A stretch of 64,000 nt of DNA from Candidatus Dormiibacterota bacterium (lineage in GTDB: Bacteria > Chloroflexota > Dormibacteria > Aeolococcales > Aeolococcaceae), in NCBI GenBank assembly GCA_963718525.1, contig OY970355.1, forward strand, positions 640,001-704,000. Direction: 5' to 3'. The position numbers were made by a program, and so were the translations under genes. Under the pieces are notes generated by a model. The model ran no database searches and was not told where the DNA came from. It saw only the letters and a list, made by a program, of their open reading frames with translations. Positions within the stretch are counted from its first letter, which is position 1. Each line of letters starts with the position of its first letter. Positions 16,847 through 59,024 of this stretch are shown in pieces.

Positions 16847-16937
16847 ATGGCGGGCCGCCCGTCAGTGTGGCAGCTTTGCGTGATGCAATACAATCTCGGC
16901 ATCTGAGGGATACAGGGGCGGGCGACCGGAGGGGATC

Positions 16938-37564: not shown

Positions 37565-37590
37565 ATAAGGCGTTCACTCCGCGGGTACGA

Positions 37591-37611
37591 ATGTTCAGAG
37601 GCATTGAACAT
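37591..37611. promoter_or_regulatory. Palindromic operator ATGTTCA-gaggcat-TGAACAT
   Basis: In the divergent intergenic region; matches the 27228-27248 palindrome, including GCAT in the spacer. Confidence 0.72.
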
Positions 37612-37656
37612 CTCCGACGGGGGGTCGATACTTGCCGCAGGAAGCGTGTTGCAGCA

Positions 37657-43096: not shown

Positions 43097-43552
43097 TCAT
43101 TTCGTGACTGCGAGCGCGTCGCGCATCCAGGGTGGCAGAGTGATGCGACCTTTGCCATTCGGATCGATCGCTACATAAACATTGCGACCGACAGCGATGA
43201 CTTTATCCTCATCGATCATGCGGAAGCCGAGCTCGAGAGACGAGGTTCCCAATCGTAGGCATCCGACCTCGAGCACAATCTCGTCGTCGAACTGCGCAGG
43301 CTTGAGGTACCGGCACGTTGCCTCGACTACAACCAAGTCGAGCCCACGCTGGTGTATCGCGCTCCAGTCACCTACGGCCGTCCGCAAGTACTCAACCATG
43401 CCCATATCAAAGTACTCGAAGTAGCGCGAGTGGAAGACATATCCTTGGGGATCGCACTCGCTATAACGCACCCGAAACGGCCAACGATGCCCTAGGGTTC
43501 TCGTGGTGAGCCGGTCAAGCACCTTTGACGGATCAGATTGGATAGAAGCCAC
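43097..43552 (-). CDS. Acyl-CoA thioesterase (4HBT/YbgC hot-dog fold)
   Basis: RVRYSECDPQGYVFHSRYFEYFD...RYLKPAQFDD. Confidence 0.9.
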   Translation of the reverse strand: MASIQSDPSKVLDRLTTRTLGHRWPFRVRYSECDPQGYVFHSRYFEYFDMGMVEYLRTAVGDWSAIHQRGLDLVVVEATCRYLKPAQFDDEIVLEVGCLRLGTSSLELGFRMIDEDKVIAVGRNVYVAIDPNGKGRITLPPWMRDALAVTK

Positions 43553-43656
43553 CCCTCTACGTCGTCCGCTCCGTCCTAACGAAAGTCAAGACGAGGCCCC
43601 GTCGGTATGGTCAAGGTCGACGGGTCTCATGGGGCAGGCGCGGCTCGGGCGCGACT

Positions 43657-44151
43657 TCACGCATGATCGAGCCCGCGATCTGCGCGGCGGAGCGCGACCC
43701 CCTCGACCGCGTTCACGATTGACGAGTACCCGGTGCACCGACACAAGTTGGAGCTGACGGACTCCCGAATGGCAGAGCGCGAAACACCTGCGGGCGATGA
43801 TGCCAGGCACGCGTAACTCACCACTAACATCCCTGACGTGCAGAAGCCACATTGAAAGGCGTTGTTGTGGAGGAAAGAGGCTCGAAGTTCCGTGGCCAGC
43901 TCGCGATCCAGGAAATCAAGTCCTTCTACCGTCACCACTCGGTGACCCCGTGCCTTCCACAACGGCACGAGACAACTCCTCACCGGCTGCTCATCGACGA
44001 GGACTGTGCAGGCACCGCATACGCCGTGTTCACAAATTGTGTGGCCACCTTGGAGACGGATCTTGTCTCGCAGGAAGTCACTCAGTGACCAGTAGAGCGG
44101 CACTTCTATCGCACATTCGACGCCGTTGATGGTGATAGTTTCGCTATCCAT
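43657..44151 (-). CDS. Molybdenum hydroxylase 2Fe-2S subunit (CoxS-like)
   Basis: CEHGVCGACTV..SC, TVEGL, QCGFCTSG, NLCRCTGY; start ATG 44151. Confidence 0.93.
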   Translation of the reverse strand: MDSETITINGVECAIEVPLYWSLSDFLRDKIRLQGGHTICEHGVCGACTVLVDEQPVRSCLVPLWKARGHRVVTVEGLDFLDRELATELRASFLHNNAFQCGFCTSGMLVVSYACLASSPAGVSRSAIRESVSSNLCRCTGYSSIVNAVEGVALRRADRGLDHA

Positions 44152-44989
44152 TGGTTCCACTCCTCGCGAGCGTGTTCCGAGTGGTCCAGGCTCGCTCGAC
44201 CAGAATCTCCGCGACCCACTCCGCAGAGAAGCCTGACTGGACCATCGCTTCTTCAACTCCGGCTCTGACCTCGTCGCGCAGCTGCGCACGGTTCGCCAAC
44301 CGGCCGACCTGGATCAAGCCCGCGCTGCCATCTCGTACCGCAAATGCGATCCGGCCGCTCTGAGCTTCGCCTCCAGCTGTTGGAATTGCCAACGCCGCGG
44401 CCAGAACGGGCACCCACGTCCCCTGCTCCCCAACCTCAAAGAAGTCCCACCCGTCGAGCCCGTCCTGCAGAGGCACCTCAAGGTGCGTGAGCAGCAGGAC
44501 TGATGTGTCGCGCTCTGGTCGCATCGAGCGGAGCTCGAGCCCGGTCAGCCTCCGGGTCTCCCCCCATGAATCGAGGACGACGGCCGCGCCACCACATGCC
44601 ATGATCGCGAGCGGGATCTCCGCGGTTGGCGACCCATGGAAGAAGTTGCCGCCCGCAGTCGCGAGGGTCCGTATCGGACCGACAGCGACCTGCGATGCCG
44701 CTTTTGAGACGAGTCCCCCATTGCCTTCGAGTGAAGTTGCGGCTAGCTCGGCCAGGGTCATGCAGCTGCCGACTGCCAGCATCGCACCGTCATCCACTGA
44801 GTGGGCACGATGAAGCTCGCTCACACCCGAGAGGTCAATAAGGCATGTGGGGCGCCGGTAACCCAAGCGCAGCTCGTAGAGCAGCCCCTGGCCGCCGGCG
44901 ACGAACATTGCCTCCGGGTGTTCCCGCCACATCGCTACGGTTTCGGCGACCGTTGTCGGACACAGGTACTCAAGCGGATAGAACTTCAT
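44144..44989 (-). CDS. Molybdenum hydroxylase FAD subunit (CoxM-like)
   Basis: AGGQGL, LIDL, IRTLATAGGN. Confidence 0.85.
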   Translation of the reverse strand: MKFYPLEYLCPTTVAETVAMWREHPEAMFVAGGQGLLYELRLGYRRPTCLIDLSGVSELHRAHSVDDGAMLAVGSCMTLAELAATSLEGNGGLVSKAASQVAVGPIRTLATAGGNFFHGSPTAEIPLAIMACGGAAVVLDSWGETRRLTGLELRSMRPERDTSVLLLTHLEVPLQDGLDGWDFFEVGEQGTWVPVLAAALAIPTAGGEAQSGRIAFAVRDGSAGLIQVGRLANRAQLRDEVRAGVEEAMVQSGFSAEWVAEILVERAWTTRNTLARSGTNG

Positions 44990-47487
44990 GCGTCGCCTGC
45001 CCCCAGCCCCACCGGTTGGGTTTGGTTGCAGAGGTGCTGCCAGTCGAGACAGGCGTGAACAAAGTCTCGATGGTGGAGCGGCAGTTCGTTGACCACGAAT
45101 CCAACGGGTCGCAGGGCATCGCTGAGTGCTGTCGCGATTGCGGCAGGTGCACCGATCGGCCCATCTTCGCCCCCCCCGCGCACCCCAAAGACATTCCCAG
45201 GCGAGAGGGTCTCGACGTGCAAGACCTCAATCTCAGGGACGTCGGTAGCGCGTGGGGTTCGGTAGCGGAAGAGATCAGTTGCGCCGGACTGCCCTGCGTC
45301 GTTGAACTCGATGAACTCGAGGAGCGCCTGGCCCAGTCCTTGCGCCACGCCTCCACGAACCTGCTCGTCGAGCAGGGCTGGATTTATGACGCGGCCGGAG
45401 TCACCGACAACGACGTACTTACGGAAGCGGATCTCACTCGTGAGCGTGTCCACAGCGCACACAACCCCGTGCCAGGCGTAGGGCGACGTGAATGGCTTCG
45501 CCGGTCGAAAACTGCTAACGGCCGACAACCCCGGTGTGATTCGGCGGGGGAGACGGCTCATCTGGAAGTACGCGACGCGGCACACATCTTCAAGCGACAC
45601 CACGCGGCCATCGAGTGCTCGAACGCCTTCCGCAGTCAGGCTGACTTCTCCGTCGGTGCCAAGGAGCGACGCCCCAATGTCCTTGATTTTCCCGGCTAGT
45701 TCCTCTGCTGCCGTGACAACAGCGCCGCCACTGATCACCGAGACGCGACTGCCCCATGATCCGGAGCCGTAGTGGGCGCTTCCCGAGCTGTTGCCGGCGA
45801 CCCGCACACATCGTGGGTCGATGCACAGCACCTCACTGACCATCTGCGCGAACGTCGTCTCATGAGCCTGTCCGGAGGACGCGGCGGCGATACGGACATC
45901 GACTGAGCAGTCCGGGTTGACCCGGACATACGCTTCCTCCCAATCCGTTACGGCTCTCACGCCCAGGCCGTCCATCGAGACGGCCGATGGCTCCGCTACT
46001 GCCGATAGCCCAATGCCGATCAGGACGCGGTCGTGCCGGCGCCGGCGCTCCTCCCGCTCCTCGCAGACCGCGCGATAGTTGAGATGCTCAAGCGTCATGG
46101 CAAGTGCCGTGCGGTACTGCCCGGCGTCATAGTGAACGCCTGCGGAATTTGGACCTGTCTGCATCTCCGGCAAGAGATTGAGCTCCTGCACCGCTGCAAA
46201 GTCCTGTCCCACTGCCCATGCCACATCCTGAAGTACCCGCTCCACCACGAAGACGCCAACTGGTGCAGCCACGCCGCGGTAAGTGCCGCCCGTTGGCTTG
46301 TTGGTCATGACGGCGCGGGTGTGATAGGAGTATTCCCCGAGGTCATAGATTGAGGGAAGACGGAAGGGCAGGGCGGCCGCCTCAACCGCCGACGAGAGCG
46401 GCGAGTACGAGTACGCTCCAGCGTCACTCGTGGAGTCCACATGGAAGGCGACGATGCGACCGGTGGAGTCATACGCGGCCACCACATCATTGACTTCCCG
46501 TCGAGCCTGAATACCATTTTGGAGATGTTCAACAGATGTCTCGAGCCATCTGACTGGGCGTCCCGTATGCATGGCAAGGAGGCAAACCGCAATTTCCTCC
46601 CTCTGCGCACCGATCTTCGCCCCGAAGCCGCCTCCTACATCGGGTGCAACGACCTCGATGTTCAACTCTGGCAAATGGAGCACGTCGGCTAGCACGCGGC
46701 GAAGCATGAGCGGGGTCTGTGTGCTCGCGGTGACCTTCAGCGTGCCATGAGTCCAGACGGCTAGGCACCCTCGTGGTTCCATGGGCATCGCGGAGATGCC
46801 GGCGGTCATGAAGCGCGTCTGAAGATTCTGATCTGCGGACATCTCACGGACCCGCTGCGCGAGGCTCTCAGACGTGATGCCAGTTGCCTCGGTCGGATAC
46901 GACCCCTCGGCGCCATCCGCGCGCGTCCCTACGGCTTCGTAGAGAATGTTCGAGCCCAGATCGTTGTACAAGATGGGCACCCGATCAGACGCGCTCCCGG
47001 CGACGAGTGCATCGACCACCACCGGAAGCGGATCGATCTTCACGACCACGTGCTGGGCCGCTGCCTCTGCCTCAGAGCGATCCGGTGCCGCGACGATTGC
47101 TACCGGGTCCCCGATGTATCGGACCTTCTCCACGGCCAAGCACCAGAACTTCGGGTTTGCGTGGGTTGGGATTTCCCAGTGCGCGGGCATCGGGGCGCTC
47201 AGTGAGGCGACATCGAGGCCTGTCATACCCACGACGTCAGGCCGATGCGGCGTCGTCGCGCGTGTCAGGTCAACCTCTCGGAGCAGGCCGTGCGCGATCG
47301 TACTCCGCACGAATATCGCCTCCAGTGCTCCCTCCGCGTCAACATCCGCAAGGTATGCTGCCGCGCCGCGTACGAATCTGGCGGCGTCGATGCGAGGAAC
47401 GCTGCTCCCCACGACTGATTCGGAGCCCGACGCCTCAGCGAGACCCCACCGCTCCGCTGACTGGTTTCCTGATCTCAACTCCTTCAC
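44986..47487 (-). CDS. Xanthine-dehydrogenase-family molybdopterin subunit (CoxL-like, not form I CO dehydrogenase)
   Basis: VRSTIAHG, PMEPRG, DVGGGFGAK, TYRGVA, SSGQAHET, GSWGSR, QVRGG..QGLG, VRGGGE. Confidence 0.93.
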   Translation of the reverse strand: MKELRSGNQSAERWGLAEASGSESVVGSSVPRIDAARFVRGAAAYLADVDAEGALEAIFVRSTIAHGLLREVDLTRATTPHRPDVVGMTGLDVASLSAPMPAHWEIPTHANPKFWCLAVEKVRYIGDPVAIVAAPDRSEAEAAAQHVVVKIDPLPVVVDALVAGSASDRVPILYNDLGSNILYEAVGTRADGAEGSYPTEATGITSESLAQRVREMSADQNLQTRFMTAGISAMPMEPRGCLAVWTHGTLKVTASTQTPLMLRRVLADVLHLPELNIEVVAPDVGGGFGAKIGAQREEIAVCLLAMHTGRPVRWLETSVEHLQNGIQARREVNDVVAAYDSTGRIVAFHVDSTSDAGAYSYSPLSSAVEAAALPFRLPSIYDLGEYSYHTRAVMTNKPTGGTYRGVAAPVGVFVVERVLQDVAWAVGQDFAAVQELNLLPEMQTGPNSAGVHYDAGQYRTALAMTLEHLNYRAVCEEREERRRRHDRVLIGIGLSAVAEPSAVSMDGLGVRAVTDWEEAYVRVNPDCSVDVRIAAASSGQAHETTFAQMVSEVLCIDPRCVRVAGNSSGSAHYGSGSWGSRVSVISGGAVVTAAEELAGKIKDIGASLLGTDGEVSLTAEGVRALDGRVVSLEDVCRVAYFQMSRLPRRITPGLSAVSSFRPAKPFTSPYAWHGVVCAVDTLTSEIRFRKYVVVGDSGRVINPALLDEQVRGGVAQGLGQALLEFIEFNDAGQSGATDLFRYRTPRATDVPEIEVLHVETLSPGNVFGVRGGGEDGPIGAPAAIATALSDALRPVGFVVNELPLHHRDFVHACLDWQHLCNQTQPVGLGAGDA

Positions 47488-47948
47488 TGCCTTCCTCTTC
47501 CACCGCTTCCAGAAGCCTGAACTTGTGGAACGTCTACAACCGCCGTCGCCTCGATTTCGATCAAAAACTCAGGACGCACAAGACGCTGCACCACGAGAAG
47601 AGTATTGGCCGGGTACACATGCTCCGGGAAGTAGGTGTCAAACAGCCGCGCCCGAGTTTCGTAGAACAGCGGAATGTCTTCCGCCCGAGTCAAGAAGGTC
47701 GTGAACTTGACGACGTCTCCGAGACTGCTCCCTGCGGCTGAAAGTACGCGTCCAAGATTCTCGAAGACGACCTCGGTTTGGCGCCCGAGATCGCCTTCTC
47801 CCTGCAGGTTTCCATCGATATCGACAGCCACCTGTCCCGCTACGAAGGTCGCGGCCCCACCCCGCATCGTCACGGCATGTGAGTACGCGCCGAGAGGAGC
47901 CCCAACCCCCTCCGGATTCACAAAGTATTCCAAATGTTTAGTGGCCAC
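47484..47948 (-). CDS. RidA/Rid family enamine/imine deaminase
   Basis: YSHAV, VAGQVA, R..F...YPANTL, LIEIEATA. Confidence 0.9.
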   Translation of the reverse strand: MATKHLEYFVNPEGVGAPLGAYSHAVTMRGGAATFVAGQVAVDIDGNLQGEGDLGRQTEVVFENLGRVLSAAGSSLGDVVKFTTFLTRAEDIPLFYETRARLFDTYFPEHVYPANTLLVVQRLVRPEFLIEIEATAVVDVPQVQASGSGGRGRQ

Positions 47949-47976
47949 TCGCGTTCAACTGCCTCCCGTCAACGTG

Positions 47977-48864
47977 CTAAGCATGAGTCAGATACGGCGA
48001 AACGGACGGGTCGCCAAAGAGGGGATTATGAGCACCTTCGATGAAGTCGCATACCAAAGAGTTGAACAAGTTCGGATACTCCAAGAACGGCAGGTGCCCG
48101 CACCGCGGGAGGATGGTGAGGTGTGACTGCGGGATGCGTGCTGCCCCCCACGCGGCTGTCTCCGGGGAGCATCTGGGGTCCTCGCGCCCCGAAATGACGA
48201 GCGTCGGCACGCGTATCTCGCCGAGCCGATCGACTACTCGCTGCTCGGGCGGCGCGGGCCGACTACGCAGATCATCCAGAAGCGCCTCGTAGAAGGCTTG
48301 TACCTCTGGGAGCGCGTAGGAAGTCAGTTGCGGCAGCAACACCTCCTCTGGCACCGAGCGTGCATCCCAACAAATGCGAGCCAGCCGGGCTCGACAGCTC
48401 TCGAGTGACGCATGTTTGATGGCTGTCATGGCGTTCTGGTAGGTGTCCGAGTACATCTTCCGCGCAGCCTCGTCCGCTGTGAAACAGCTGCCGCTTCCAA
48501 CAATGACGAGACCCTTAACGCGGTCGGGCATGCGGAAGTACACAAGAGCAGCGATCAGAGCACCCACGGAGCTGCCTACGATCGTGACGCTCCCGAGAGC
48601 AAGTGCATCCATGACTGCGCAGATGTGCGTGGTGAGGGCTCCGCGAAAATCTCTATCCAGCACCTCACTTACACTGGTAAAGCCATGCCCAAGAAGATCC
48701 GGCGCGACCACCGTGTGCCTCTGCCCTAGGTCTGCTACGTTGCGGAGCCACAAATCTGCCGAAAGGCCCACTCCGTGAAGGAGCAGGACGGCATCGCCGT
48801 CACCATCGACGAGATATCGCGTGCGGACATCGCCGGCCCGCAAGTACATGGCCCGCATCGCCAC
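47977..48864 (-). CDS. Alpha/beta hydrolase (amidohydrolase or C-C hydrolase-like)
   Basis: LLHG, DLLGHG, GSSVG nucleophile elbow, GRED, CGHLP. Confidence 0.9.
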   Translation of the reverse strand: MAMRAMYLRAGDVRTRYLVDGDGDAVLLLHGVGLSADLWLRNVADLGQRHTVVAPDLLGHGFTSVSEVLDRDFRGALTTHICAVMDALALGSVTIVGSSVGALIAALVYFRMPDRVKGLVIVGSGSCFTADEAARKMYSDTYQNAMTAIKHASLESCRARLARICWDARSVPEEVLLPQLTSYALPEVQAFYEALLDDLRSRPAPPEQRVVDRLGEIRVPTLVISGREDPRCSPETAAWGAARIPQSHLTILPRCGHLPFLEYPNLFNSLVCDFIEGAHNPLFGDPSVSPYLTHA

Positions 48865-48915
48865 TAAGCTCCAGCTTCGGCAAACCGGTAACGGACGGCC
48901 GTCAAGAGAGCCTCG

Positions 48916-50391
48916 TCAGGGCGCACTTGGGCGCACCGCTGGTTGTCCACTGTCCGCCACGCTTCCGTCTCGGGGGAGACCGGCACGGAGGTTCCCCAAG
49001 CGGCGACGGGCCAGGACCAGATACAATCCGCCGCCGACCACTGGAGCGACGAACCAGGAGAGGTCTCCGCCATTGACAGCATTCGCAATGGGTCCGACCC
49101 AGAACGTCAGATTGGCGAAGGGGACTGCCACGGCGGCGCCCACCAGCCAGCTCACCAGGCCGGGCCAATTCCACGAGCCGTACATGCCGTTAGGTTTGAA
49201 TATCTCGGCCGTCACGTAATGGCGACGGCGGACGAAGTAGAAGTCGACCAGGTTCACGGCCGACCACGGCAGGAGGAAGAGCACTGCGACTGACAAGAAG
49301 TCACCAAAGACGCCGAAGAAGCTGTTCGCGTAGGCTATCGATGCAGCTAGTGCGAGCGCGAAGACCGGTACCATCGCAACGATCCGCGCCGTGCAACTCT
49401 TGGTCACCGCGAACCGCGGGTTAAGCGATTGGACAAGGCTCAAGGCCGTGTTCACGCCTGCGTAAAGTGAGAATGAACCTTGAAGGACCGTGACAATGCA
49501 TGTCACTGTCACAAACAACCAGGCAAACCAGAGTCCCAGTCCGCTCACCACCGTGAAGAGCGCACCGAAAACGTCCGGGGTGTAGCGGAACTCGACACCG
49601 AGGAGGGCTCCAAATACGAGAAGCCACAGTTCGCCCACCCAGATACCGAGATACGTCCATCCCGAGACGGCCCCAACACTCACGTCCGGCCTGAGGTACC
49701 TTGAATAGTCGGCTACATAAGGCGCGTATCCGGCGGCAAAAATGAAACTGAAGGATATGGTCCCCAGAAAGAGCCCCAAAGAGAAGGAACCACCGAGAGG
49801 AACTGACCCCCCGTTCGGAAGAGTGTTGTGAAAGATCAGCGTAAGAAACGCCACGAGGTACACAACGATCGCAACAACCGTCAGGACCTTACCAAGGGCG
49901 TGTGAGAAGTTGTAGCCGAACAGGGCCACCAGCGCGCAAAGCACCGCTATCACAACGGTGAGGAAAATCACACTGAGGCTAGGGGCTCCGCCAACGACGA
50001 GCAGGGCCGAGGCCGATGGGTTAGATGCAAAGAATCCAATATAGATGAATTCCGCCATAATCATCGCGAAAATAGATCCGCGGAATCCAAACTGCGCCCG
50101 CGATTGAATCATTTGGGGAATGCCTAAGGTCGGGCCTTGGGCGGCGTGAAAGGCCGCGAGCGCACAGCCTCCCGAGAGACCGATCACCATCGCGACCACG
50201 GTCCAGATGAAACTGGCGCCCGGCGATACAAACAGGGCGCCGGCACCAATACTGGCTACCACGACGCCTCCACCAAAGAAGAGCGTGAACATGTCCCGAG
50301 GCCGTCCGTGGCGCTCATTCAACGGGATGAAATCGATCGAGTGTTCCTCGATGGCGAGCATGTTGGTAGCCCCAGTCGTGGTCTCCGGCAT
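48916..50391 (-). CDS. NCS1 purine-cytosine permease family transporter
   Basis: IEEHSIDFIP..ERHG, GIPQMIQSRAQFG, YVADYSRY, PWSAVNLVDFY; GGAGG RBS before ATG 50391. Confidence 0.93.
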   Translation of the reverse strand: MPETTTGATNMLAIEEHSIDFIPLNERHGRPRDMFTLFFGGGVVVASIGAGALFVSPGASFIWTVVAMVIGLSGGCALAAFHAAQGPTLGIPQMIQSRAQFGFRGSIFAMIMAEFIYIGFFASNPSASALLVVGGAPSLSVIFLTVVIAVLCALVALFGYNFSHALGKVLTVVAIVVYLVAFLTLIFHNTLPNGGSVPLGGSFSLGLFLGTISFSFIFAAGYAPYVADYSRYLRPDVSVGAVSGWTYLGIWVGELWLLVFGALLGVEFRYTPDVFGALFTVVSGLGLWFAWLFVTVTCIVTVLQGSFSLYAGVNTALSLVQSLNPRFAVTKSCTARIVAMVPVFALALAASIAYANSFFGVFGDFLSVAVLFLLPWSAVNLVDFYFVRRRHYVTAEIFKPNGMYGSWNWPGLVSWLVGAAVAVPFANLTFWVGPIANAVNGGDLSWFVAPVVGGGLYLVLARRRLGNLRAGLPRDGSVADSGQPAVRPSAP

Positions 50392-50534
50392 GGCTAAACC
50401 TCCGCCTCTCGACCAGATGGATGGGTTGCAGCGATTCGCTTGTGCACGCGTTTCTCCTGATAAAAGGGGGCAGCCGGCCGATGATCGGGCGGAGTGTAGC
50501 GACCACAGGATTGCTCCGTCAAGGGAAACGGGCA

Positions 50535-50565
50535 GTTCTGATCCAAAATCAGCATCCAAAATCAG
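50535..50565. promoter_or_regulatory. Candidate GntR operator (TGAT-N5-ATCA; tandem ATCCAAAATCAG x2)
   Basis: Direct repeat at 50541-50552 and 50554-50565; 15/17 match at 53984-54000. Confidence 0.6.
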
Positions 50566-50745
50566 GAGGGCTCAGGCCGGAGCTTGTCCATCCCCCGGGC
50601 TGCCAGTTCAGGGCATCAGCTGTTCGAATGTGCCGCGACGGGCGCTCTCGTCGCGGTAGGCTTGCTCGTCATGGGTACGCGGGCGGCGCCTCGAAGCCTG
50701 GGAACTCCTCCAGCGAACATTGGGTCATGGGTGAGCGGGCTGGCC

Positions 50746-51462
50746 ATGTCATCCGCGGCGCCGAGCGTCGGCATCCCTGGGACGCGCCACAAGCTTGGCC
50801 ACGAGGTCAGTAGGTACATCCGCGACGCCATCTTGAGTGGAGCGTTTGTTCCAGGTCAGCGAATGGGTGTCCATGATCTCGCCGAGTCTCTGGGAGTAAG
50901 CACGATGCCGGTGCGAGAGGCCCTCGTCACGCTCGCCAACGAGGGCTTACTTGACGTGTTGCCACGTCGCGGGTTTCGCGTTGCCTGGCTGCGCCAGACA
51001 GACCTCCGCGACGTTTACCAGATTCACGCGTTCGTTTCGGGGCTACTCGCCGGATATGCAGCGACGGTAATCAGCTCAAGCCAGATCGCCGAGCTGCGAG
51101 AAATCGACGAGCGCATCGGCCGGCTCGAACGGCGGCGGCTGAGTTCCGTCGAGCGCTCGGAGCGCATCGAGGAGCTGAATTTCAAGTTCCACCGCACGAT
51201 TAACTTGGCGACCGACCACGGGCGGTTGCACTGGTACCTTCGCACCGCCGATCGATATATCCCACGACGATTCCACACGAGGATCGTTGGGTGGGACGAG
51301 ACCACCGTTCACGGTCACGCCGAGATCATCAGCGCACTCGAAAGGCACAACTCTCGTCGAGCAAGGCGCCTGGTGGAGACGCACATTTCAACTGCGGGCG
51401 ACCTGATCATCGCGAATCTCGACAAGCTCGGCCTGTGGTCGGCCGACGGTCCCGGCTCGTGA
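50746..51462 (+). CDS. GntR (FCD) transcriptional regulator
   Basis: IRDAILSG...LAESLGVSTMPVREAL..LANEGL; N..FH and H..II..L motifs; likely start ATG 50746. Confidence 0.92.
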   Translation: MSSAAPSVGIPGTRHKLGHEVSRYIRDAILSGAFVPGQRMGVHDLAESLGVSTMPVREALVTLANEGLLDVLPRRGFRVAWLRQTDLRDVYQIHAFVSGLLAGYAATVISSSQIAELREIDERIGRLERRRLSSVERSERIEELNFKFHRTINLATDHGRLHWYLRTADRYIPRRFHTRIVGWDETTVHGHAEIISALERHNSRRARRLVETHISTAGDLIIANLDKLGLWSADGPGS

Positions 51463-51517
51463 CGGCTAACTGCGCCACCGTGAACGATCGGCTGAAGAGG
51501 ACGATGCCAATACCACT

Positions 51518-53905
51518 TCAGTATGACCGCGGCATGTCGAGCACATTGTGCCCGAGATACGCGAGCACGAGGTTGTTCGGCACCGGCGCGTTCAGGTACA
51601 GCCGCGTCTCACGGAACTTCCGCTCGATATCAAAATCGGCTGCGAATCCCCATCCTCCATGAGCGTCGAGGCAGGCATTAGCTGCTTGCCATGAGGCCTC
51701 GGATGACAGCAGCTTTGCCATGTTCGCTTCTGGCCCGCAGGGGCGTCGCGCGTCGAAGAGCGACGCGGCCTTCCAGCGCATGAGGGACGCCGCCTCAATG
51801 GCCGCGTGGGCGCGCGACAACGGGAACTGGACGCCTTGATTGGCTCCGATGGGGCGGCCGAACACCTCACGCTGCCTAGAGTAGGCACTTCCGGTTCGAA
51901 CAAACCACCGCCCATCTCCGATGCATTCGGATGCGATGAGAATCCGCTCCGCATTCATCGACTCTATTAGATAGCGGAATCCGAGGCCCTCGTCACCGAC
52001 GAGAGCGTCCTCCCCAACTTCAAGGCCGTCGAAGAAAACCTCGGTGGTCAGGTGGTTGCTCATCGTCTTCAACGGCCGGACAGTCAGCTGTTCGCCGGCG
52101 AGGCGCATGTCAATCAGAAAAACAGATAGACCCTCCTGACTGCGGGTTCCACTCGTGTTTTGGGATGTTCGGGCGATCAGCATCATCAGGTCGGAATGCT
52201 GCGCCCTCGAGATGAAAACCTTCTGTCCATTGATCCGCCAACCTCCATCGATCCGCTCGGCGGTTGTTGTGATGGCTGTCGTGTCAGAACCAGATGTGGG
52301 CTCTGTGACACCGAAAGCCTGCAGCCGCAGAGCTCCGGCAGCGATTTGCGGTAGCCAGCGCGACTTCTGCGCCTCGCTGCCAAATCGCAGGAGTGTTCCC
52401 ATCGTGTACATCTGCGCATGACAAGCGGCAGCGTTGCCCCCTGACGAATTGATCTCTTCGAGGATGACGCCTGCCGCTGAAAGCCCGAGTCCGCCTCCGC
52501 CGAATTCACTCGGAATCAGAACTGCCAGCCAGCCCTGCTTGGTCACCTCCGCGACGAACGTCTCCGGGTACTGGTCGGGTTCTAGTCCACGCCAATACGA
52601 CGCAGGGAAGCCCGCGCACAGCTGTGCAACCGCCGAGCGTATGTCGCGGAATTGCTCCGCCTCGTCGAACCACATCCCTCGACTTCCAATGGATGATGAC
52701 ACTGGATCAACGCTTCGTCCGAATGTCGCGCGGGCTATGCGATTGCCGCCCAGTTCGGCCAGCACTTCGTTGGTATGCTCGCCAAGCGCCGGAACGTTTC
52801 CGGTAGGCGCGTCAACTCCCGCGAGGTTGAATGGCGGTCGCAGCGCGGGCACCGGCCCAGTGGGCGTAGACACTTCAAACCAGCGGTCCCGAGAGGCCAG
52901 TTGCACATGCGCCGCTAGGCCCGCGACATCGTTGACGACGCCATATGGAATATCGCCAGCATCAAGAGCGCGTAGGACCGTCGGAAGATCTCTCGTAGCG
53001 AGGCGCTCCTCGACCAATCGCTCTAGGCTCACGCGATTCGTCACGCGCAATTCGTTGGTGCGATATCGGGGATCCTGCACCAATCCTGGATCCTCAAGCA
53101 ACCCGGTGCAGAACGCTTGCCACTGAGCTGCGGTATGCACAGCCAAGTTCACCATCCGGCCGCCCGCGACCGGATATGGGCCGTAGGGGCAGATGCTGTT
53201 GTGCCGCATGCCTGTGCGGACCGGCTCTTGTCCCGTATACATGCGATGGTAGAGCGGAGTCATCATCCACTCAGCAAGACAGTCAAGCATTGCAATATCA
53301 ATCCGGATCCCTTCGCCCGTCCGGTGTCGCTGGAGGAGGGCGGCGAGTACCGCGCTCAGCGCATACATCCCTGAGGAGATGTCCGCGATCGAGATGCCAA
53401 CCTTGGCAGGCTCGCTCGGACTGCCGGTGACCGAAACGACCCCGGCCTCCCCTTGGATCAACAAGTCGAAGCCCTTACGCTGCGCCTCCGGGCCAGACGT
53501 CCCGTAGGCAGTGATCCCGCAGACTATGAGCCCCGGCCAACGAGCGTGCAGGTGATCCCAGCCTAATCCCAGCCGCTCGATGCCTCCTGGTCCGAGGTTG
53601 TGGACCAAGACATCGGCGCCGGCGAGCAGGCTCTCCAGAGCCGCCAGGCCGGCGGCGGAAGCCAAGTCAAGGACGACGCTGCGTTTACCTCGGTTCAGCC
53701 AGACGAAGTAGGCGGAGTCGCCATGCACGACGGAGTCGTAGCCGCGCGCGAAGTCGCCTCCGCCTGGCCGTTCGATTTTGACGACGTCGGCTCCCAGGTC
53801 AACAAGATGGCGGGTACACAGGGGTGCTGCCACGGCCTGCTCCAGCGCCACTACTCGGAGGCCGCGAAGAGGTGGCGTGCTGATGAGAGGATGGCTACCG
53901 CTCAT
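51518..53905 (-). CDS. Fused CaiB/BaiF (family III) CoA-transferase + acyl-CoA dehydrogenase
   Basis: N-half LEQAVAAP..DLGADVVKIE..GDFAR..NRGKRS, ADISSG; C-half GVTEPTSGSD, NGQKVFIS, ERILIA, REVFGRPIG.NQ, HGGWGF. Confidence 0.9.
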   Translation of the reverse strand: MSGSHPLISTPPLRGLRVVALEQAVAAPLCTRHLVDLGADVVKIERPGGGDFARGYDSVVHGDSAYFVWLNRGKRSVVLDLASAAGLAALESLLAGADVLVHNLGPGGIERLGLGWDHLHARWPGLIVCGITAYGTSGPEAQRKGFDLLIQGEAGVVSVTGSPSEPAKVGISIADISSGMYALSAVLAALLQRHRTGEGIRIDIAMLDCLAEWMMTPLYHRMYTGQEPVRTGMRHNSICPYGPYPVAGGRMVNLAVHTAAQWQAFCTGLLEDPGLVQDPRYRTNELRVTNRVSLERLVEERLATRDLPTVLRALDAGDIPYGVVNDVAGLAAHVQLASRDRWFEVSTPTGPVPALRPPFNLAGVDAPTGNVPALGEHTNEVLAELGGNRIARATFGRSVDPVSSSIGSRGMWFDEAEQFRDIRSAVAQLCAGFPASYWRGLEPDQYPETFVAEVTKQGWLAVLIPSEFGGGGLGLSAAGVILEEINSSGGNAAACHAQMYTMGTLLRFGSEAQKSRWLPQIAAGALRLQAFGVTEPTSGSDTTAITTTAERIDGGWRINGQKVFISRAQHSDLMMLIARTSQNTSGTRSQEGLSVFLIDMRLAGEQLTVRPLKTMSNHLTTEVFFDGLEVGEDALVGDEGLGFRYLIESMNAERILIASECIGDGRWFVRTGSAYSRQREVFGRPIGANQGVQFPLSRAHAAIEAASLMRWKAASLFDARRPCGPEANMAKLLSSEASWQAANACLDAHGGWGFAADFDIERKFRETRLYLNAPVPNNLVLAYLGHNVLDMPRSY

Positions 53906-53983
53906 TCGTGCCCCCGGACAGCCCTGAATTCGACACTAATGACTCACCATCACATCGTCGTTCGGCAGACCGCGGCCACTCAT

Positions 53984-54000
53984 GTTCTGATCTAATATCA
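53984..54000. promoter_or_regulatory. Second candidate GntR operator GTTCTGATCTAATATCA
   Basis: In the divergent promoter region; matches 50535-50551. Confidence 0.55.
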
Positions 54001-54100
54001 TACTTACCCAACCCGATGAGCACCGAGGGGAACTCGGATCGATATAGTCTGACGAGCTAAGCCGGCTCGGCGGCGGGGAGAATAGTCAGGAGGTTCTGGC

Positions 54101-55105
54101 GTGATGACTTCGGCCACGATGGAGCTACGAGAGATGGTCCGCTTCAGACCGCGCCGGTTGGCGCATGGCAACTTCTTCGTGAGCGACCTTGAGAGATCCA
54201 CCTCCTTCTATGTCGACGTCTGCGGACTCAACCTCGTCTATCGAGAGCCTGGAATCCACGCTAACTTCCTCAGCAACGGTAGCAGTCATCACGACGCCGC
54301 TCTGATGGAGATATCGCGGGAAGCCAGGGTCGGACGGGGTGGCCATGTTCAGGTGCCGGCCGGGCGGGGGCGCACCCCGGGACTGAACCACGTCGCCTTC
54401 GAGATGGAGAACGAGGCGCTCCTGGTTGCTGCCTATCGGCGAGCGGTAGCGGCGCATGTTCCCATTCACCGCACCGCCGATCATCAGATCTCTCATAGCG
54501 TCTATCTCTTCGATCCCGATGGCAACTACCTCGAGATCTACTGGGACGCGACCAAGGACTGGCGCGGTGTCTACAAGGCAAATGAGAATGAACTCCTGAC
54601 GGCAACGTGGGATCCTAACGCCGCGGCTCCCTCAGATGACCGCAATTACAATCCAGATCCCCAGTACTCGACGGTGCCAGCAGCTCTTCTGCATCCAAAA
54701 CGGACGTCCCGCGCCGCTCTGCTCACCCCTGATGTCCAAAGGCTTCAAGACTTCTACGTCCAGATCGTCGGGCTCGACGTTGTAGCCGAAGATCCGGAGA
54801 GTAGATATGTAACGCTTGCCGGTACTGTTGACGGTCAGGACATTTCGCTTTTGGTGACGCACGATGGGCGGAAAGGCTTGCACCACTTCAGCTTCGAGCT
54901 CGAGGAGGAGGCGGAACTAGCGGATGCGATCGGAAGATTGAAGGCAGGCAGGATTCCTATCCTCGCGGAGATCGACAACCCGACCAAGCACAGCGTGGCG
55001 ATTGCTGATCCGGACGGCATTGTCCTCGAGTTCTTTGTGAAGCGCCGGGTTCCGCTCTCGGCTTATGCCCCTGCTGAAAATGAGCCGATTGAGTTTGTGG
55101 TTTAG
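54101..55105 (+). CDS. Two-domain VOC protein (extradiol dioxygenase-like)
   Basis: LAHGN, HHD, GLNHVAFE, H..SHSVY..DPDGN.LE; AGGAGG RBS. Confidence 0.87.
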   Translation: MMTSATMELREMVRFRPRRLAHGNFFVSDLERSTSFYVDVCGLNLVYREPGIHANFLSNGSSHHDAALMEISREARVGRGGHVQVPAGRGRTPGLNHVAFEMENEALLVAAYRRAVAAHVPIHRTADHQISHSVYLFDPDGNYLEIYWDATKDWRGVYKANENELLTATWDPNAAAPSDDRNYNPDPQYSTVPAALLHPKRTSRAALLTPDVQRLQDFYVQIVGLDVVAEDPESRYVTLAGTVDGQDISLLVTHDGRKGLHHFSFELEEEAELADAIGRLKAGRIPILAEIDNPTKHSVAIADPDGIVLEFFVKRRVPLSAYAPAENEPIEFVV

Positions 55106-55187
55106 GTGCCGGCGGAGTGCCTAAGGTCGATCACCAAATTCCGCCGGATTTGCAACGACCTCTAGCGATCTCGGCTGAAGCCGCGAA

Positions 55188-56366
55188 GTGAGACCTGGAC
55201 ACGCGGAGATCGTCGGCGGTGGGCTGGCTGGGTTGACCGCAGGCTTGGCGCTGGCAAAGAGCGGCTGGCGCGTGCGAGTCCATGAACGCTCCCCCGAGTT
55301 GCGGGAGATCGGCGCTGGTCTGTACCTCAAAGAGAACAGCCTGCGAGTCCTTGAGCGGCTGGGTGTCTTTGACGAGGTTGCAGCTCACGGTGTCCGTCTA
55401 GAGAGAATGGATATCCATGACGTGGATCGAGATCGCTGGTTGATCCGCGAGGTCAGTCAGCTTCGCGTGTATAACGTCGTCCGTACGGCGTTGCACCGCA
55501 CGCTTGCGCAGGCGGCGGTTGCGCGCGGAGCCGAAGTCCTGACTAGCTCCACGGGAGTCCACGCAGAGCCTTCGGGTCGGCTCCGTCTGGCCTCGGGAGA
55601 GACGGTAACCGCTGACTTGGTGGTCGGGGCGGACGGGATTTACTCGAAGATCCGCGAATCGGTCCGCCTCGGTCGCGCACTGCGGATCCTTCCCGAAGGC
55701 GGCACCCAACTCTTAGTGAAGCGAACCGAAGCTGAGTCAAAGGCTTGGAGCGTCGAACACTGGTCGGGCAAGCTCCGGATGCTAACCACCCCATGCAGTG
55801 CTACCGACACGTATGTCGCGCTTATGGGTCCCGAATCGGACAAGCGCGCGTCAGCGGTGCCGATCGACAAGCGACGTTGGTCGAACGCTTTTCCCAATCT
55901 CATCGACATAGTCGGGAGGATGGGCGACAAGGATGGAGTCCACCACACAAACGTGAAGGTCGAGACGCGAGGCTGGGCATCAGGCAAAGTAGCAATCGTA
56001 GGCGACGCGGCGCACGGGCAACCGCCAAACCTTGGCCAGGGCGCCGGGCTCGCCATCGCGAACGGGTTGGCGCTTGCCGACATGCTCCAGCGGTACGACA
56101 CGGTCGAGGAAGGTCTCCTCGCATGGGAGGCAACCTTTCGTCCGGTGGCCATGGCAACGCAGCGTTGGTCCTGCTGGTATGGCAACCTCGCCTACCGGTG
56201 GCCGACCAGGCTGGGCAACTACCGCATGCCGGCACTTGAGGGGATCAATGCCTTTCCGCCGCTCGGCAATCGCTATTTCTGGCTCTGGCAAGGCGGCCTT
56301 TCCGACTACAAACAGCCGCGCTCGCTCACCAAAGCGCTCCGTGTGCACCGGCGCGACAAGGCCTAA
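55188..56366 (+). CDS. FAD-dependent monooxygenase, MHPCO (3-hydroxypyridine-carboxylate ring-cleaving oxygenase)-like
   Basis: AEIVGGGLAG, HERSPELR.IGAGLY, GADG, R....PC....Y..LM.P..D.R...VPID...W...FP, GDAAH..P.LGQGAG. Confidence 0.85.
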   Translation: MRPGHAEIVGGGLAGLTAGLALAKSGWRVRVHERSPELREIGAGLYLKENSLRVLERLGVFDEVAAHGVRLERMDIHDVDRDRWLIREVSQLRVYNVVRTALHRTLAQAAVARGAEVLTSSTGVHAEPSGRLRLASGETVTADLVVGADGIYSKIRESVRLGRALRILPEGGTQLLVKRTEAESKAWSVEHWSGKLRMLTTPCSATDTYVALMGPESDKRASAVPIDKRRWSNAFPNLIDIVGRMGDKDGVHHTNVKVETRGWASGKVAIVGDAAHGQPPNLGQGAGLAIANGLALADMLQRYDTVEEGLLAWEATFRPVAMATQRWSCWYGNLAYRWPTRLGNYRMPALEGINAFPPLGNRYFWLWQGGLSDYKQPRSLTKALRVHRRDKA

Positions 56367-56442
56367 TTCCGCGCCTTCGTGTCGAGAGGTCGCGATGGGG
56401 TGTCGTGATGATCCATCGACGCGTTCCTACTCGATTTCGCCG

Positions 56443-57288
56443 TCAATGTGCGCCGGTTAGAGGCGTCACCAACCTGCCGAGGCCCTGCACCTCGACCTCG
56501 ACGACATCCCCGGGCTTCATCCACACTTTGGGATCACGACCCTGAATAACGCCTTCTGGCGTGCCCGTGGCAATGAAGTCACCGGGCTCCAGGGTCACAT
56601 ACTGACTGATGTAGCTGACGAGAGCGCGAACGCTGAACAACATATCTGATGTCGTGGAATCCTGCCGCAGCTCGCCGTTGAGCCAGCTCCGGATCGTGAG
56701 GTTCTGCGGATCGTCTACCTCGTCGGCTGAGACCAACTCGGGGCCTACGGGAAGAAAGCCGTCGAGCATCTTCCCGAGCAGGTACTGGCTGGTGCGGAAC
56801 TGGAGGTCCCGCGCTGACAGGTCATTGCAGTTGCAGTAGCCCCAGACATGGTCAAGAGCCTCCGCCTCTGACACCCGACGAGCGCGTCGACCGATGACCA
56901 CCCCGAGCTCCGCCTCATAGTCGTACTCGCGAACATCAGCAGGCAGCGTCACCGGTGATCCCGACGCGACGAGGGCATTGTTGAACTTAGAGAACAGCGT
57001 GGGAGTCGAAGTCGGCGTGAGGCCGATTTCGGCGGCGTGACGCCGATAATTCATACCGACGCAGAGGAGTTTGCCTGGCAACGGCACGCATAGGCCGTTG
57101 GTGCCAAGGTGGGTCGCCAAACGACCTACAGTCGCTGCGCGCTCAGCACGTATTCGAGCCCTTTCGCCGCCTGTAACAAGCTCACTCACAGAACGCGGCG
57201 CATCCCCGTCGGTTAATATGGCCCAACCCTCCGGCCGTCGGATCGCGAGCCGTGGGCCATGCTCGGTAATGAGTCCTGTGACGCGCAT
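56443..57288 (-). CDS. Fumarylacetoacetate hydrolase family protein
   Basis: CVGMNY..H, DYEAELG, NDLSARD, GK, GDFIATGTPEG. Confidence 0.93.
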   Translation of the reverse strand: MRVTGLITEHGPRLAIRRPEGWAILTDGDAPRSVSELVTGGERARIRAERAATVGRLATHLGTNGLCVPLPGKLLCVGMNYRRHAAEIGLTPTSTPTLFSKFNNALVASGSPVTLPADVREYDYEAELGVVIGRRARRVSEAEALDHVWGYCNCNDLSARDLQFRTSQYLLGKMLDGFLPVGPELVSADEVDDPQNLTIRSWLNGELRQDSTTSDMLFSVRALVSYISQYVTLEPGDFIATGTPEGVIQGRDPKVWMKPGDVVEVEVQGLGRLVTPLTGAH

Positions 57289-57497: not shown

Positions 57498-58100
57498 GTG
57501 TCCTGGAACATCAGTGGGTCGTACTTCGAGACCTGCTCGTGCAACGTGGTCTGCCCATGCACCGCGTAGCTCGCGCTTGGCGCCACACTCGATCGCTGCA
57601 AGGTCACACTCGTCTTCAATGTCCACAATGGAGACGTCGAAGGCACCCACGTCGGCGGCCTGACGGTGGCGGCGATCGTCGATACACCGAAGGTCATGAC
57701 CGACGGAAACTGGCGCGTCGGCGTGTTCATCGATGCTGCCGCTTCTGATGAGCAAGCGGAGAAGCTCGGTGGCGTCTTCTCCGGTGCGCTGGGCGGACCG
57801 ATGGCTGCCCTCGGGCCGCTGATCTCGGAGAATCTCGGCGTGCAGCGGGCTCCGATCGAGGTGCGTGAAGACGGGCTGCGCCACTCGATTCGGATCGGTG
57901 ACGCTGTGGACTTCGAGATCGAAGATGTCGTGCCATTCGGGGTGGAGAACGGCCAGCCCGCAAAGCTCACCGGTATCTTTCATCCGGCCGGTTCGGAGTT
58001 GACAGTGGCTCGGGCGACGCGGTCGAAGATCGATGGGTTCGGGATCGCGTACGAGGCCAAGGCTGCCTTCTCGACATCGAACTTCTCGTGGTCGGCCTAG
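57498..58100 (+). pseudogene. DUF1326 metal-binding protein with in-frame TAG at 57567-57569
   Basis: GTG SWNISGSYFETCSCNVVCPCTA*LALGATLDRC... continues in frame into ORF 57666-58100. Confidence 0.85.
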
Positions 58101-58936: not shown

Positions 58937-59024
58937 GGGCTGGCATCGATTCGTTTGCCCGACGAGCGCCGCCGCCGTCCGATCGGCGTATCGTCGATCG
59001 ACTTCTGGCTAAGAGGCGTTTGAA

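Follow-up and report, generated by a model that had tools for sequence, protein, structure and literature searches.

Which compound does the twelve-gene cluster at positions 43097-57288 of this stretch of DNA degrade, and how far is its route already known from other bacteria? The stretch, which we refer to as the window, comprises 64,000 nt of contig OY970355.1 (assembly GCA_963718525.1, 640,001 to 704,000 of the forward strand), and all window coordinates given here are positions within it. Pyridine rings are found in cofactors, alkaloids, agrochemicals and drugs, and the genes for hydroxypyridine breakdown are known from few cultured bacteria. We find that the cluster very probably serves the catabolism of an N-heteroaromatic compound of the pyridinol type, because it encodes a flavin monooxygenase related to MHPCO together with a molybdenum (Mo) hydroxylase whose large subunit is closest to quinoline 2-oxidoreductase. 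A first-pass annotation of the locus had proposed an apparently undescribed route for a pyridine-type compound; its N-heteroaromatic part is borne out by the same two enzymes, whereas "undescribed" overstated the case, since the kpi cluster published in 2020 has five of the same families. The most testable novelty is the pairing of a dioxygenase of the VOC type with a hydroxylase of the MHPCO family.

Each of the twelve genes listed by that annotation was confirmed at 43097-57288 with the open reading frame (ORF) list and Pfam, only its "RidA" label needing correction, and the genes are arranged as four transcription units. The first, on the minus strand, comprises the genes for an NCS1 permease, an alpha/beta hydrolase, a Rid protein, the Mo-binding large subunit, the FAD subunit and the [2Fe-2S] subunit of the Mo hydroxylase, and a hotdog thioesterase. 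The second is a divergent GntR/FCD regulator gene, the third a minus-strand gene for a 795-amino-acid fusion of a CoA-transferase with an acyl-CoA dehydrogenase (ACAD), hereafter the CoA fusion, and the fourth a divergent VOC gene followed by the flavin monooxygenase gene, with an FAH gene convergent to the pair. We read the FAD-subunit, large-subunit and Rid genes as one operon because the FAD/large-subunit and large-subunit/Rid gene pairs each overlap by 4 bases. The flanking genes, for a K+ channel and hypothetical proteins on the left and for PpoB2 and DUF899 proteins on the right, are unrelated to the cluster by Pfam, and its borders therefore hold; GC content is even over the window (0.60-0.66). 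The thioesterase alone passed a curated NCBIfam cut-off (TIGR00051, 73.3 against 68.7 bits), the other 11 cluster proteins falling below the cut-off of every named NCBIfam family.

The group A flavin monooxygenase (55188..56366, plus strand; Pfam FAD_binding_3), a proposed pyridone or pyridinol hydroxylase, has MHPCO as its best PDB match (E 6.8e-64, 219 bits), with the next family at 2e-19 and NicC at 3e-17. Alignment bears out the motifs HE.S.ELR..GAG.YL, PC...Y..LM and VPID...W...FP, which the first-pass annotation had described as common to this protein and MHPCO, and likewise the differences it had noted at substrate-site positions, GTQL standing where MHPCO has LIRL and HTNV where it has KYET. 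In the PDB alignment Tyr223 and Arg211 of MHPCO are kept, and Tyr82 is replaced by Glu (in a gapped stretch), Arg181 by Gln and Tyr270 by Asn, the MHPCO active site thus being retained only in part; we take Arg181, Arg211 and Tyr270 to have active-site roles in that enzyme. The monooxygenase relatives that are identifiable by record annotation or paper all act on pyridine, pyridone or quinolone rings. According to the accessible part of PMC6180312, Tyr223 and Tyr82 of MHPCO are important for substrate deprotonation, and the accessible part of PMC9838390 describes KnmB1, which is 45% identical to MHPCO, as a plain pyridine-ring hydroxylase.

These residues bear directly on a vitamin B6-type route, in which an MHPCO-like ring-opening oxygenase would act on a 3-hydroxypyridine carboxylate, the alpha/beta hydrolase would be an (acylaminomethylene)succinate hydrolase and the CoA module would take the succinate derivative. 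The first-pass annotation had used the Mesorhizobium vitamin B6 pathway as its comparator, and the cluster and the pathway of Mesorhizobium loti do share the FAD motifs, Tyr223, Arg211, a GntR regulator and an alpha/beta hydrolase; MHPCO being the best solved relative also favours such a route, and a CoA-transferase with an ACAD would suit a substituted succinate. We nevertheless consider it very unlikely, given that three MHPCO residues are replaced, among them the Tyr82 reported to matter in deprotonation, that a dedicated ring-cleavage dioxygenase, the proposed role of the VOC protein, is a separate and conserved neighbour, that MHPCO relatives such as KnmB1 can be plain hydroxylases, and that by established chemistry the meta-hydroxyl required by MHPCO cannot come from a Mo hydroxylase. 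The other families of the B6 pathway are missing as well: with Pfam we found no GMC pyridoxine oxidase, class II aldolase-type decarboxylase, 3HCDH-type dehydrogenase or lactonase in the cluster or its flanks. Homologues that do have B6-type neighbours, in loci L041 and L037, belong to a different clade, and the alpha/beta hydrolase is nearest to meta-cleavage-product hydrolases, so that the B6 comparator is not retained.

Distant homologues of the monooxygenase, 36-41% identical, were seen at L041:3892-14827, L037:6551-14781 and L028:3221-9484. They adjoin some of the genes for GMC oxidoreductase, class II aldolase-type, 3-hydroxyacyl-CoA-dehydrogenase-type and "AA_synth" proteins, the gene set expected of true vitamin B6 (MHPC) degradation clusters, and in L028 a class II aldolase-type gene stands beside the homologue together with Rieske and LigB genes.

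About as near to the window monooxygenase as MHPCO are two plasmid-borne monooxygenases, presumably 4-quinolone 3-hydroxylases, with 39% identity for that of pAL1 and 38% for that of pRLCBG43 (BG43), which we take to be Moq and AqdB, names absent from the records. In pAL1 the counterpart gene is flanked by those for the quinaldine Mo hydroxylase and for the dioxygenase annotated as acting on 3-hydroxy-2-methylquinolin-4-one, and in pRLCBG43 it adjoins aqdC1; the window motif GQPPNLGQG is nearer to AQPPYLGQG of pAL1 than to AMAPALAQG of MHPCO. A bicyclic quinoline or 4-quinolone route similar to quinaldine breakdown in pAL1, its lower steps being of the anthranilate type, would draw on this likeness, on the neighbouring genes for a three-subunit Mo hydroxylase and the monooxygenase in pAL1 and on the Rid, FAH and thioesterase genes of its lower operon, families that the window has too. 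We regard that route as highly improbable. Ring opening in pAL1 and in the aqd system of pRLCBG43 is carried out by cofactor-less dioxygenases with an alpha/beta-hydrolase fold and followed by an amidase and an anthranilate-CoA route, for which the window has no homologue: it contains no Hod/AqdC-type dioxygenase, and the alpha/beta hydrolase gave no BLASTP match at E 1e-3 to the pAL1 and BG43 proteins in Hod, Amq, AqdA and AqdC positions. Furthermore, an aryl-CoA ligase and a salicylyl/aminobenzoyl-CoA hydroxylase are absent from the cluster by Pfam, the Mo large subunit is merely 28% identical to that of pAL1, and NCS1 permeases, as a family, suit small polar heterocycles.

We placed the monooxygenase in a quick maximum-likelihood tree of 41 rows, which has support from the Shimodaira-Hasegawa-like approximate likelihood ratio test (SH-aLRT) only and from which MHPCO, KpiA, NicC and HpaM are absent. 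The window enzyme falls in a distinct clade of 15 rows (SH-aLRT 96) that includes the VOC-adjacent homologue of locus L022, and this clade stands apart from the pAL1/BG43 clade, from the homologues in B6-like contexts (L041, L037), from homologues adjacent to small VOC/THI5-type transporter genes, and from homologues associated with amidohydrolases. Homology thus assigns the enzyme its family but not its specific reaction. An NGR234 plasmid homologue considered as a stand-in for MHPCO in the tree proved not to be orthologous and was discarded. We also rejected a urate/purine route of the HpxO type and an oxidative pyrimidine route, HpxO scoring 115 bits against a cut-off of 500 and the VOC and FAH proteins being left unexplained.

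The Mo hydroxylase is a complete set of the xanthine oxidase family, with two [2Fe-2S] domains, FAD_binding_5, a hammerhead domain and two MoCoBD domains in Pfam. Its molybdopterin-binding large subunit (44986..47487, minus strand; Pfam Ald_Xan_dh_C, MoCoBD_1 and MoCoBD_2) has quinoline 2-oxidoreductase as its best solved relative (E 1.9e-94), followed by CO dehydrogenases and, at 1.6e-44, by 4-hydroxybenzoyl-CoA reductase; its identity to the large subunits of pAL1 and of locus L030 is only 26-28%. It carries GGGEDG near the C-terminus and, in the alignment, YRGVAAP where CO dehydrogenase has its Cys loop, two stretches that are presumably of functional meaning. The FAD-binding medium subunit lies at 44144..44989 (minus strand; Pfam FAD_binding_5, E 5e-27) and the [2Fe-2S] small subunit at 43657..44151 (minus strand; Pfam Fer2_2, E 3.5e-22, and Fer2), the latter in an ORF open to 44289 with a likely start Met at 44151 by translation; it shares 36% identity with the subunit that occupies the QoxS position in pAL1.

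Most such Mo hydroxylases attack next to the ring nitrogen, and the kinship with quinoline 2-oxidoreductase would also suit a 2-pyridone route. Here Mo hydroxylation beside the nitrogen would be followed by conversion to a 2,3- or 2,5-dihydroxypyridine by the monooxygenase, by VOC cleavage and by deformylation by the alpha/beta hydrolase in the manner of NicD, the monooxygenase possibly hydroxylating a hydroxypyridine carboxylate with decarboxylation, in the manner of NicC and HpaM. Arg197, the equivalent of MHPCO Arg211, is invariant within the monooxygenase clade and is Phe in the pAL1 enzyme, a pattern compatible with a carboxylate-bearing substrate if the arginine has the role we presume. 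NicD-type deformylases are themselves alpha/beta hydrolases according to the accessible part of PMC7356986. We consider a 2-pyridone route unlikely, however: the nic and pic routes depend on a maleamate amidase and an isomerase, neither of which the cluster encodes, the FAH protein would be left without a role, MHPCO is matched far better than NicC (E 7e-64 against 3e-17), and the alpha/beta hydrolase has no match at E 1e-5 to the gene in the NicD position of a Variovorax nic-like cluster, the single matching place in that record lying elsewhere.

Of the described systems, the one that serves best as comparator for the cluster is the kpi cluster of Arthrobacter sp. IN13, which degrades 4-hydroxypyridine (Vaitekunas et al. 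2020, PMC7356986). In the accessible part of that paper, KpiA (PF01494) hydroxylates 4-hydroxypyridine and is placed nearest a 4-quinolone 3-hydroxylase, KpiC (PF01979) opens the ring of 3,4-dihydroxypyridine, KpiB is a PF00561 protein of 295 amino acids, KpiD (PF01557, 288 amino acids) is proposed to hydrolyse 3-formylpyruvate, KpiP is a cytosine/purine-type permease of 533 amino acids and KpiR1 is a FadR-type regulator; deamination of 3-formiminopyruvate is proposed to be spontaneous. Five of the six Kpi protein families described there recur in the window at the family level, namely the monooxygenase, NCS1 permease, alpha/beta hydrolase, FAH and FadR/GntR families, with comparable lengths (533 for KpiP against ~491-547 amino acids here, 295 for both KpiB and its counterpart, 288 for KpiD against 281). 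The putative steps in the window would follow the same logic as those given for kpi, with hydroxylation next to the C-O group, extradiol opening, deformylation and formylpyruvate hydrolysis, and the proposals of spontaneous deamination and of a KpiD hydrolase fit a Rid protein plus an FAH enzyme here. The permease gene occupies 48916..50391 (minus strand; Pfam Transp_cyt_pur, E 4e-35) in an ORF open to 50559, with a likely start Met at 50391 by translation.

The two clusters differ at the ring-opening step, since KpiC as described is an Amidohydro_1 protein, whereas in the window a two-domain VOC protein is encoded directly upstream of the monooxygenase instead, and Pfam finds PF01979 in none of the 12 cluster proteins. 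Furthermore, the kpi cluster, in the accessible part of its description, has no Mo hydroxylase of the xanthine oxidase family, Rid protein, thioesterase or CoA-transferase/ACAD, all of which the window has. A gene-for-gene match to a characterised pathway, which the first-pass annotation had held to be incompatible with a new route, was accordingly not seen: the ring-cleavage enzyme differs, and the Mo hydroxylase, Rid, thioesterase and CoA genes are without a kpi counterpart.

We then consider the VOC protein (54101..55105, plus strand), a proposed ring-cleavage dioxygenase with the fold of type I extradiol dioxygenases and two Pfam Glyoxalase stretches. Its best PDB sequence match is weak (E 7e-7), and its predicted structure is confident, with a predicted local distance difference test (pLDDT) score of 93.4. 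Foldseek returns catechol 2,3-dioxygenases as its top matches (template modelling (TM) score 0.62-0.67, 15-17% identity), identity spanning 15-20% once homoprotocatechuate dioxygenase is included, and a comparison with the Atlas gives the same picture. Residues H22, H97, E145, H63, H64 and Y135 are invariant in 22/22 family members and all lie in the N-terminal domain, and the C-terminal domain lacks the first histidine; H22, H97 and E145 may be the metal ligands of a 2-His-1-carboxylate site. In classical type I extradiol enzymes the catalytic domain is the C-terminal one. The VOC protein thus shares with catechol and homoprotocatechuate 2,3-dioxygenases the two-domain fold and a conserved His/His/Glu set, and differs from them in having 15-20% identity only and its putative metal residues in the N-terminal domain.

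The window, L001 (VOC 96% identical) and L022 (46% and 48% for the pair) each have the VOC gene next to the monooxygenase gene. Six pairs of VOC and monooxygenase homologues share longest-contig values (30264, 14423, 3976, 17364, 43240 and 16103), which suggests that they lie on common contigs, adjacency being unproven. VOC homologues of 45-72% identity are numerous in metagenomes, in the hundreds, and bear generic names only, so a single assayed member would annotate many of them. VOC matches were found in 0/401 sampled Actinomycetota genomes and in 1/401 genomes of the family of a Gordonia genome, there at 36% identity on a 2.7-kb contig without usable context. On plasmids the closest matches reached 25% for the VOC protein over its full length, 36% for the Mo large subunit and 35% for the alpha/beta hydrolase, and these searches revealed no kpi-like or matching cluster. 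PydA and PydB of Rhizobium sp. TAL1145 are a dioxygenase and a hydrolase that act on 3,4-dihydroxypyridine (3-hydroxy-4-pyridone from mimosine), as cited in the accessible part of PMC7356986, where PydA is placed in the LigB family (PF02900) rather than in VOC. A literature search for a VOC-type dihydroxypyridine dioxygenase or a Mo-linked 4-pyridone cluster, with subscription-only work outside its scope, surfaced only the kpi paper (PMC7356986).

Next, we examined the proteins that could handle a ring-opened product. The Rid/YjgF-family protein (47484..47948, minus strand; Pfam Ribonuc_L-PSP, E 5e-24), a proposed enamine/imine deaminase, reads YPAN where the Thermus thermophilus homologue 2CSL reads YPAR, Asn replacing the canonical RidA arginine. 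In archetypal RidA, a 2-aminoacrylate deaminase, the arginine that binds the substrate carboxylate is Arg105 in E. coli numbering. Together with a TIGR00004 score of 67.6 against a cut-off of 106 in NCBIfam, this places the protein in the Rid family and not among the archetypal RidA proteins implied by the label of the first-pass annotation. The alpha/beta hydrolase (47977..48864, minus strand; 295 amino acids; Pfam Abhydrolase_1), proposed as a deformylase or C-C/C-N hydrolase acting on a ring-cleavage product, has meta-cleavage-product hydrolases as its best solved relatives (CumD, E 1.5e-21), a kinship that would suit an aza-analogue of a meta-cleavage product. The FAH-family hydrolase (56443..57288, minus strand; 281 amino acids; Pfam FAA_hydrolase, E 1.5e-71), a proposed acylpyruvate hydrolase of the 3-formylpyruvate type, has HpaG, 2,4-diketo-3-deoxyrhamnonate hydrolase, the acylpyruvase FAHD1 and a maleylpyruvate hydrolase as PDB relatives and is 42% identical to the FAH protein of L030 and 41% to that of pAL1. 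It is plausible that the Rid and FAH proteins act on a ring-opened enamine and a diketo acid, respectively.

The canonical arginine is absent from 5/5 Rid proteins compared, which carry the motifs PAN, PAS, PPN, PAM and PPN. Their genes are those at window:47484-47948, L030:925-1341, L030:5144-5626, L099:2137-2535 and L007:3570-3944, so that the four beyond the window come from L030 (two), pAL1 and L007 (one each). Four of the five lie within aromatic or heterocycle catabolic loci, the context in L007 being outside this count.

When comparing the cluster with other genomes, we find that it is syntenic in one related metagenome-assembled genome (MAG), from Candidatus Dormibacteraeota, and was not found in 340 other sampled relatives. 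The locus of this MAG, L001, runs through FAH, monooxygenase, VOC, CoA fusion, GntR and NCS1 and breaks off at the contig end after 117 residues of the alpha/beta hydrolase, with 91% identity over the full length of the CoA fusion and 70% for the monooxygenase, with length changes; among 14 genome loci found via the CoA fusion it is the sole syntenic one. At L001:6613-15376 the permease, regulator and FAH genes are broken over two or three frames and the VOC and CoA fusion genes are intact; the frame breaks could be long-read assembly error or early gene decay. The monooxygenase was found in 1/41 relatives and 1/301 phylum genomes, in both cases the window's own genome, and the Mo large subunit has matches of merely 37-39% identity in 4/300 other phylum genomes, with other cluster genes in 0/4 of the fetched loci. 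With the monooxygenase found, among these sampled genomes, only in the window's own and the Mo large subunit at no more than 39% in the others, the cluster behaves as an accessory island.

The regulator (50746..51462, plus strand; Pfam GntR, E 3e-17, and FCD, E 2e-11), of the FadR type and in an ORF open from 50584 with a likely start Met at 50746, lies among possible signs of shared control. Both divergent promoter regions contain a single palindrome CTGATC(C/T)AA(A/T)ATCA, as the operator-like CTGATCCAAAATCA at 50538..50551 between the permease operon and the regulator gene and as the operator-like CTGATCTAATATCA at 53987..54000 between the CoA fusion and VOC genes, with no further exact copy in the window; L001 has a one-mismatch copy at the first site and an identical copy at the second. 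This suggests that the units may share GntR-type control. A two-mismatch copy at 59241-59254, inside the DUF899 gene, is probably due to chance.

Synteny and palindromes bear on whether the genes form one pathway at all, or a mosaic of separate modules: an operon of Mo hydroxylase, Rid protein, hydrolase and permease, a VOC-monooxygenase pair with FAH, and a general CoA module for dicarboxylates. What can be seen in L001 is a portion of the cluster, elsewhere ACAD and CoA-transferase occur in unrelated contexts, and the four loci with 37-39% identical Mo large subunits share no other cluster gene, as a mosaic would predict. We still judge it improbable, since palindromes of the same type stand in both divergent promoter regions, L001 keeps seven genes in the same order, with each of the three putative modules represented, neither the monooxygenase nor a close homologue of the Mo large subunit (best other 39%) was found in the same sampled relatives, and locus L030 independently combines the same families.

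L030 (L030:59-18458, metagenome contig Ga0116230_10001184) has a kpi-like core of alpha/beta hydrolase, Amidohydro_1 protein, MHPCO-family monooxygenase, FAH and GntR genes and, in addition, genes for an esterase, an NCS1 permease, two Rid proteins, an HpaB-type oxygenase, an IclR regulator, CoxE/CoxD-like proteins and a three-subunit Mo hydroxylase. Since it holds the same families independently, the combination of a kpi-type core with a Mo hydroxylase, a Rid protein and an NCS1 permease is recurrent, and L030 is possibly related to the Arthrobacter kpi locus but more complete, a Mo step having been added. Across 80 metagenome loci found via alignment of the monooxygenase, a VOC neighbour was seen only in L022 and a comparable gene set only in L030, and none of the 12 longer loci that were annotated had a Mo hydroxylase or a two-domain VOC protein.

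The YbgC/FadM-type hotdog acyl-CoA thioesterase (43097..43552, minus strand; Pfam 4HBT, E 2e-15; TIGR00051) is the last gene of the minus-strand operon, and the CoA fusion (51518..53905, minus strand) combines a family III CoA-transferase (CoA_transf_3, residues 13-378) with an acyl-CoA dehydrogenase domain (residues 419-770); the PDB matches of the fusion are the CaiB/BaiF family (E 1.7e-66) and the ACAD 1WS9 (E 3e-56). Such fusions are rare, though a handful more exist among database proteins. The homologous ACAD and CoA-transferase genes of Chloroflexota MAGs are unfused and adjoin each other, next to mesaconyl-CoA-hydratase-like, HpcH-lyase-like and PrpD-like genes, which hints at an aliphatic C4-C5 dicarboxylate as the substrate of the CoA module. 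The ACAD domain also has sub-threshold NCBIfam matches to prolyl-carrier-protein and cyclohexanecarboxyl-CoA dehydrogenases.

These sub-threshold matches would fit a heteroaryl-CoA route resembling that of furoyl-CoA dehydrogenase, in which the CoA-transferase would activate a heteroaromatic or partly saturated heterocyclic carboxylate, the ACAD would dehydrogenate it, the Mo hydroxylase would act on the CoA ester and the thioesterase would free a hydroxy acid for degradation by the monooxygenase and VOC protein. The position of the thioesterase as the final gene of the Mo hydroxylase operon, the synteny of the CoA fusion gene and its place beside a promoter region with the shared palindrome agree with this, and Mo hydroxylases of CoA esters exist, 4-hydroxybenzoyl-CoA reductase matching at E 1.6e-44. 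Two points make the route quite unlikely in our view: the large subunit is much nearer to quinoline oxidoreductase (1.9e-94) than to the CoA-ester enzyme, and the Chloroflexota neighbours of ACAD and CoA-transferase point to aliphatic dicarboxylates.

The ACAD-domain subfamily, which includes P0275, P0278, P0303 and P0326, is 55-68% identical across bacteria and also ~56% identical in two proteins labelled fungal (Gonapodya, Hyaloraphidium). Elsewhere, relatives of the ACAD domain are fused to MaoC-type hydratase domains instead of a CoA-transferase.

Taken together, we rate at just short of an even chance the reading that we have here a catabolic island under GntR control, spread horizontally and directed at a small N-heteroaromatic compound, with a core that would work like the kpi pathway for 4-hydroxypyridine. 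We infer its steps from gene families and gene order. The NCS1 permease would import the heterocycle, and the three-subunit Mo hydroxylase would add an oxo group to a ring carbon, giving a pyridone. The monooxygenase would then hydroxylate the carbon beside the C-O group to a vicinal dihydroxypyridine, for which 3,4-dihydroxypyridine serves as model compound, and the VOC dioxygenase would open the ring by extradiol cleavage, in the role that the amidohydrolase-type KpiC has in Arthrobacter. The alpha/beta hydrolase, like a meta-cleavage hydrolase, would strip an N-formyl or N-acyl group, the arginine-less Rid protein would hydrolyse an enamine or imine of the 3-formiminopyruvate type and free ammonia, and the FAH protein would split a 2,4-diketo acid into pyruvate and formate or another acid. 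For the CoA fusion and the thioesterase the probable substrate is either a carboxylic acid released from a ring substituent or a dicarboxylate product, and of all the steps this is the least certain.

That the route is complete, turning a pyridine-type compound without a hydroxyl group into pyruvate, formate and ammonia by way of three steps new at the gene level (Mo hydroxylase, VOC protein and Rid protein), is a tentative proposal, and doubtful in its entirety. If it were true, the Mo hydroxylase would supply the pyridone from which the kpi pathway starts, the domain-swapped VOC protein would be a third non-homologous opener of dihydroxypyridine after the LigB-type PydA and the amidohydrolase-type KpiC, and the arginine-less Rid protein would be the long-missing 3-formiminopyruvate (enamine) deaminase for the step called "probably spontaneous" in the 2020 kpi study. 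The route would then be carried as a mobile accessory trait by a poorly known, uncultured, Dormibacteria-like soil lineage.

Several observations weigh against the kpi-like reading. Its correspondence with kpi consists of Pfam families that are common in catabolic clusters and holds at the level of families, not of orthology, and the kpi scheme offers no step for the ACAD domain or for the thioesterase. Proteins of the window and of L030 are just 22-43% identical (22% for the alpha/beta hydrolases, 26% for the permeases), and the quick tree sets the monooxygenase clade apart from the pAL1/BG43, L030 and amidohydrolase-associated clades, so that phylogeny does not assign the regiochemistry of the enzyme. 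The best NCBIfam match of the Mo hydroxylase is a model for archaeal glyceraldehyde dehydrogenase, below cut-off, and both the ring as its substrate and any position of attack on it are presumptive. The contig of L001 ends before the place of the Mo genes, and the rest of that MAG offers a large-subunit match of 32% identity at best. Finally, the palindrome pattern was derived from the same two sites that it then found, and L001 is a close relative, which makes the motif evidence weak.

Outside the cluster, the genes directly to its right (58088-59681) are the PpoB2 gene, of a copper-chaperone family, and the DUF899 gene. Further left, a 659-amino-acid STAND-type NTPase with TPR repeats and weak NB-ARC/NACHT matches is encoded at 37540-39519 and followed by two ORFs without a Pfam match, and at 14129-20234 there are two large divergent genes, for proteins of 905 and 1098 amino acids with Big_1, PKD, glucose/sorbosone dehydrogenase and DUF1349 domains, which look like secreted or surface proteins. 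An ORF of 1155 amino acids at 60056-63523 has no Pfam match at E 1e-5 and is overlapped by a long antisense ORF at 60206-62767.

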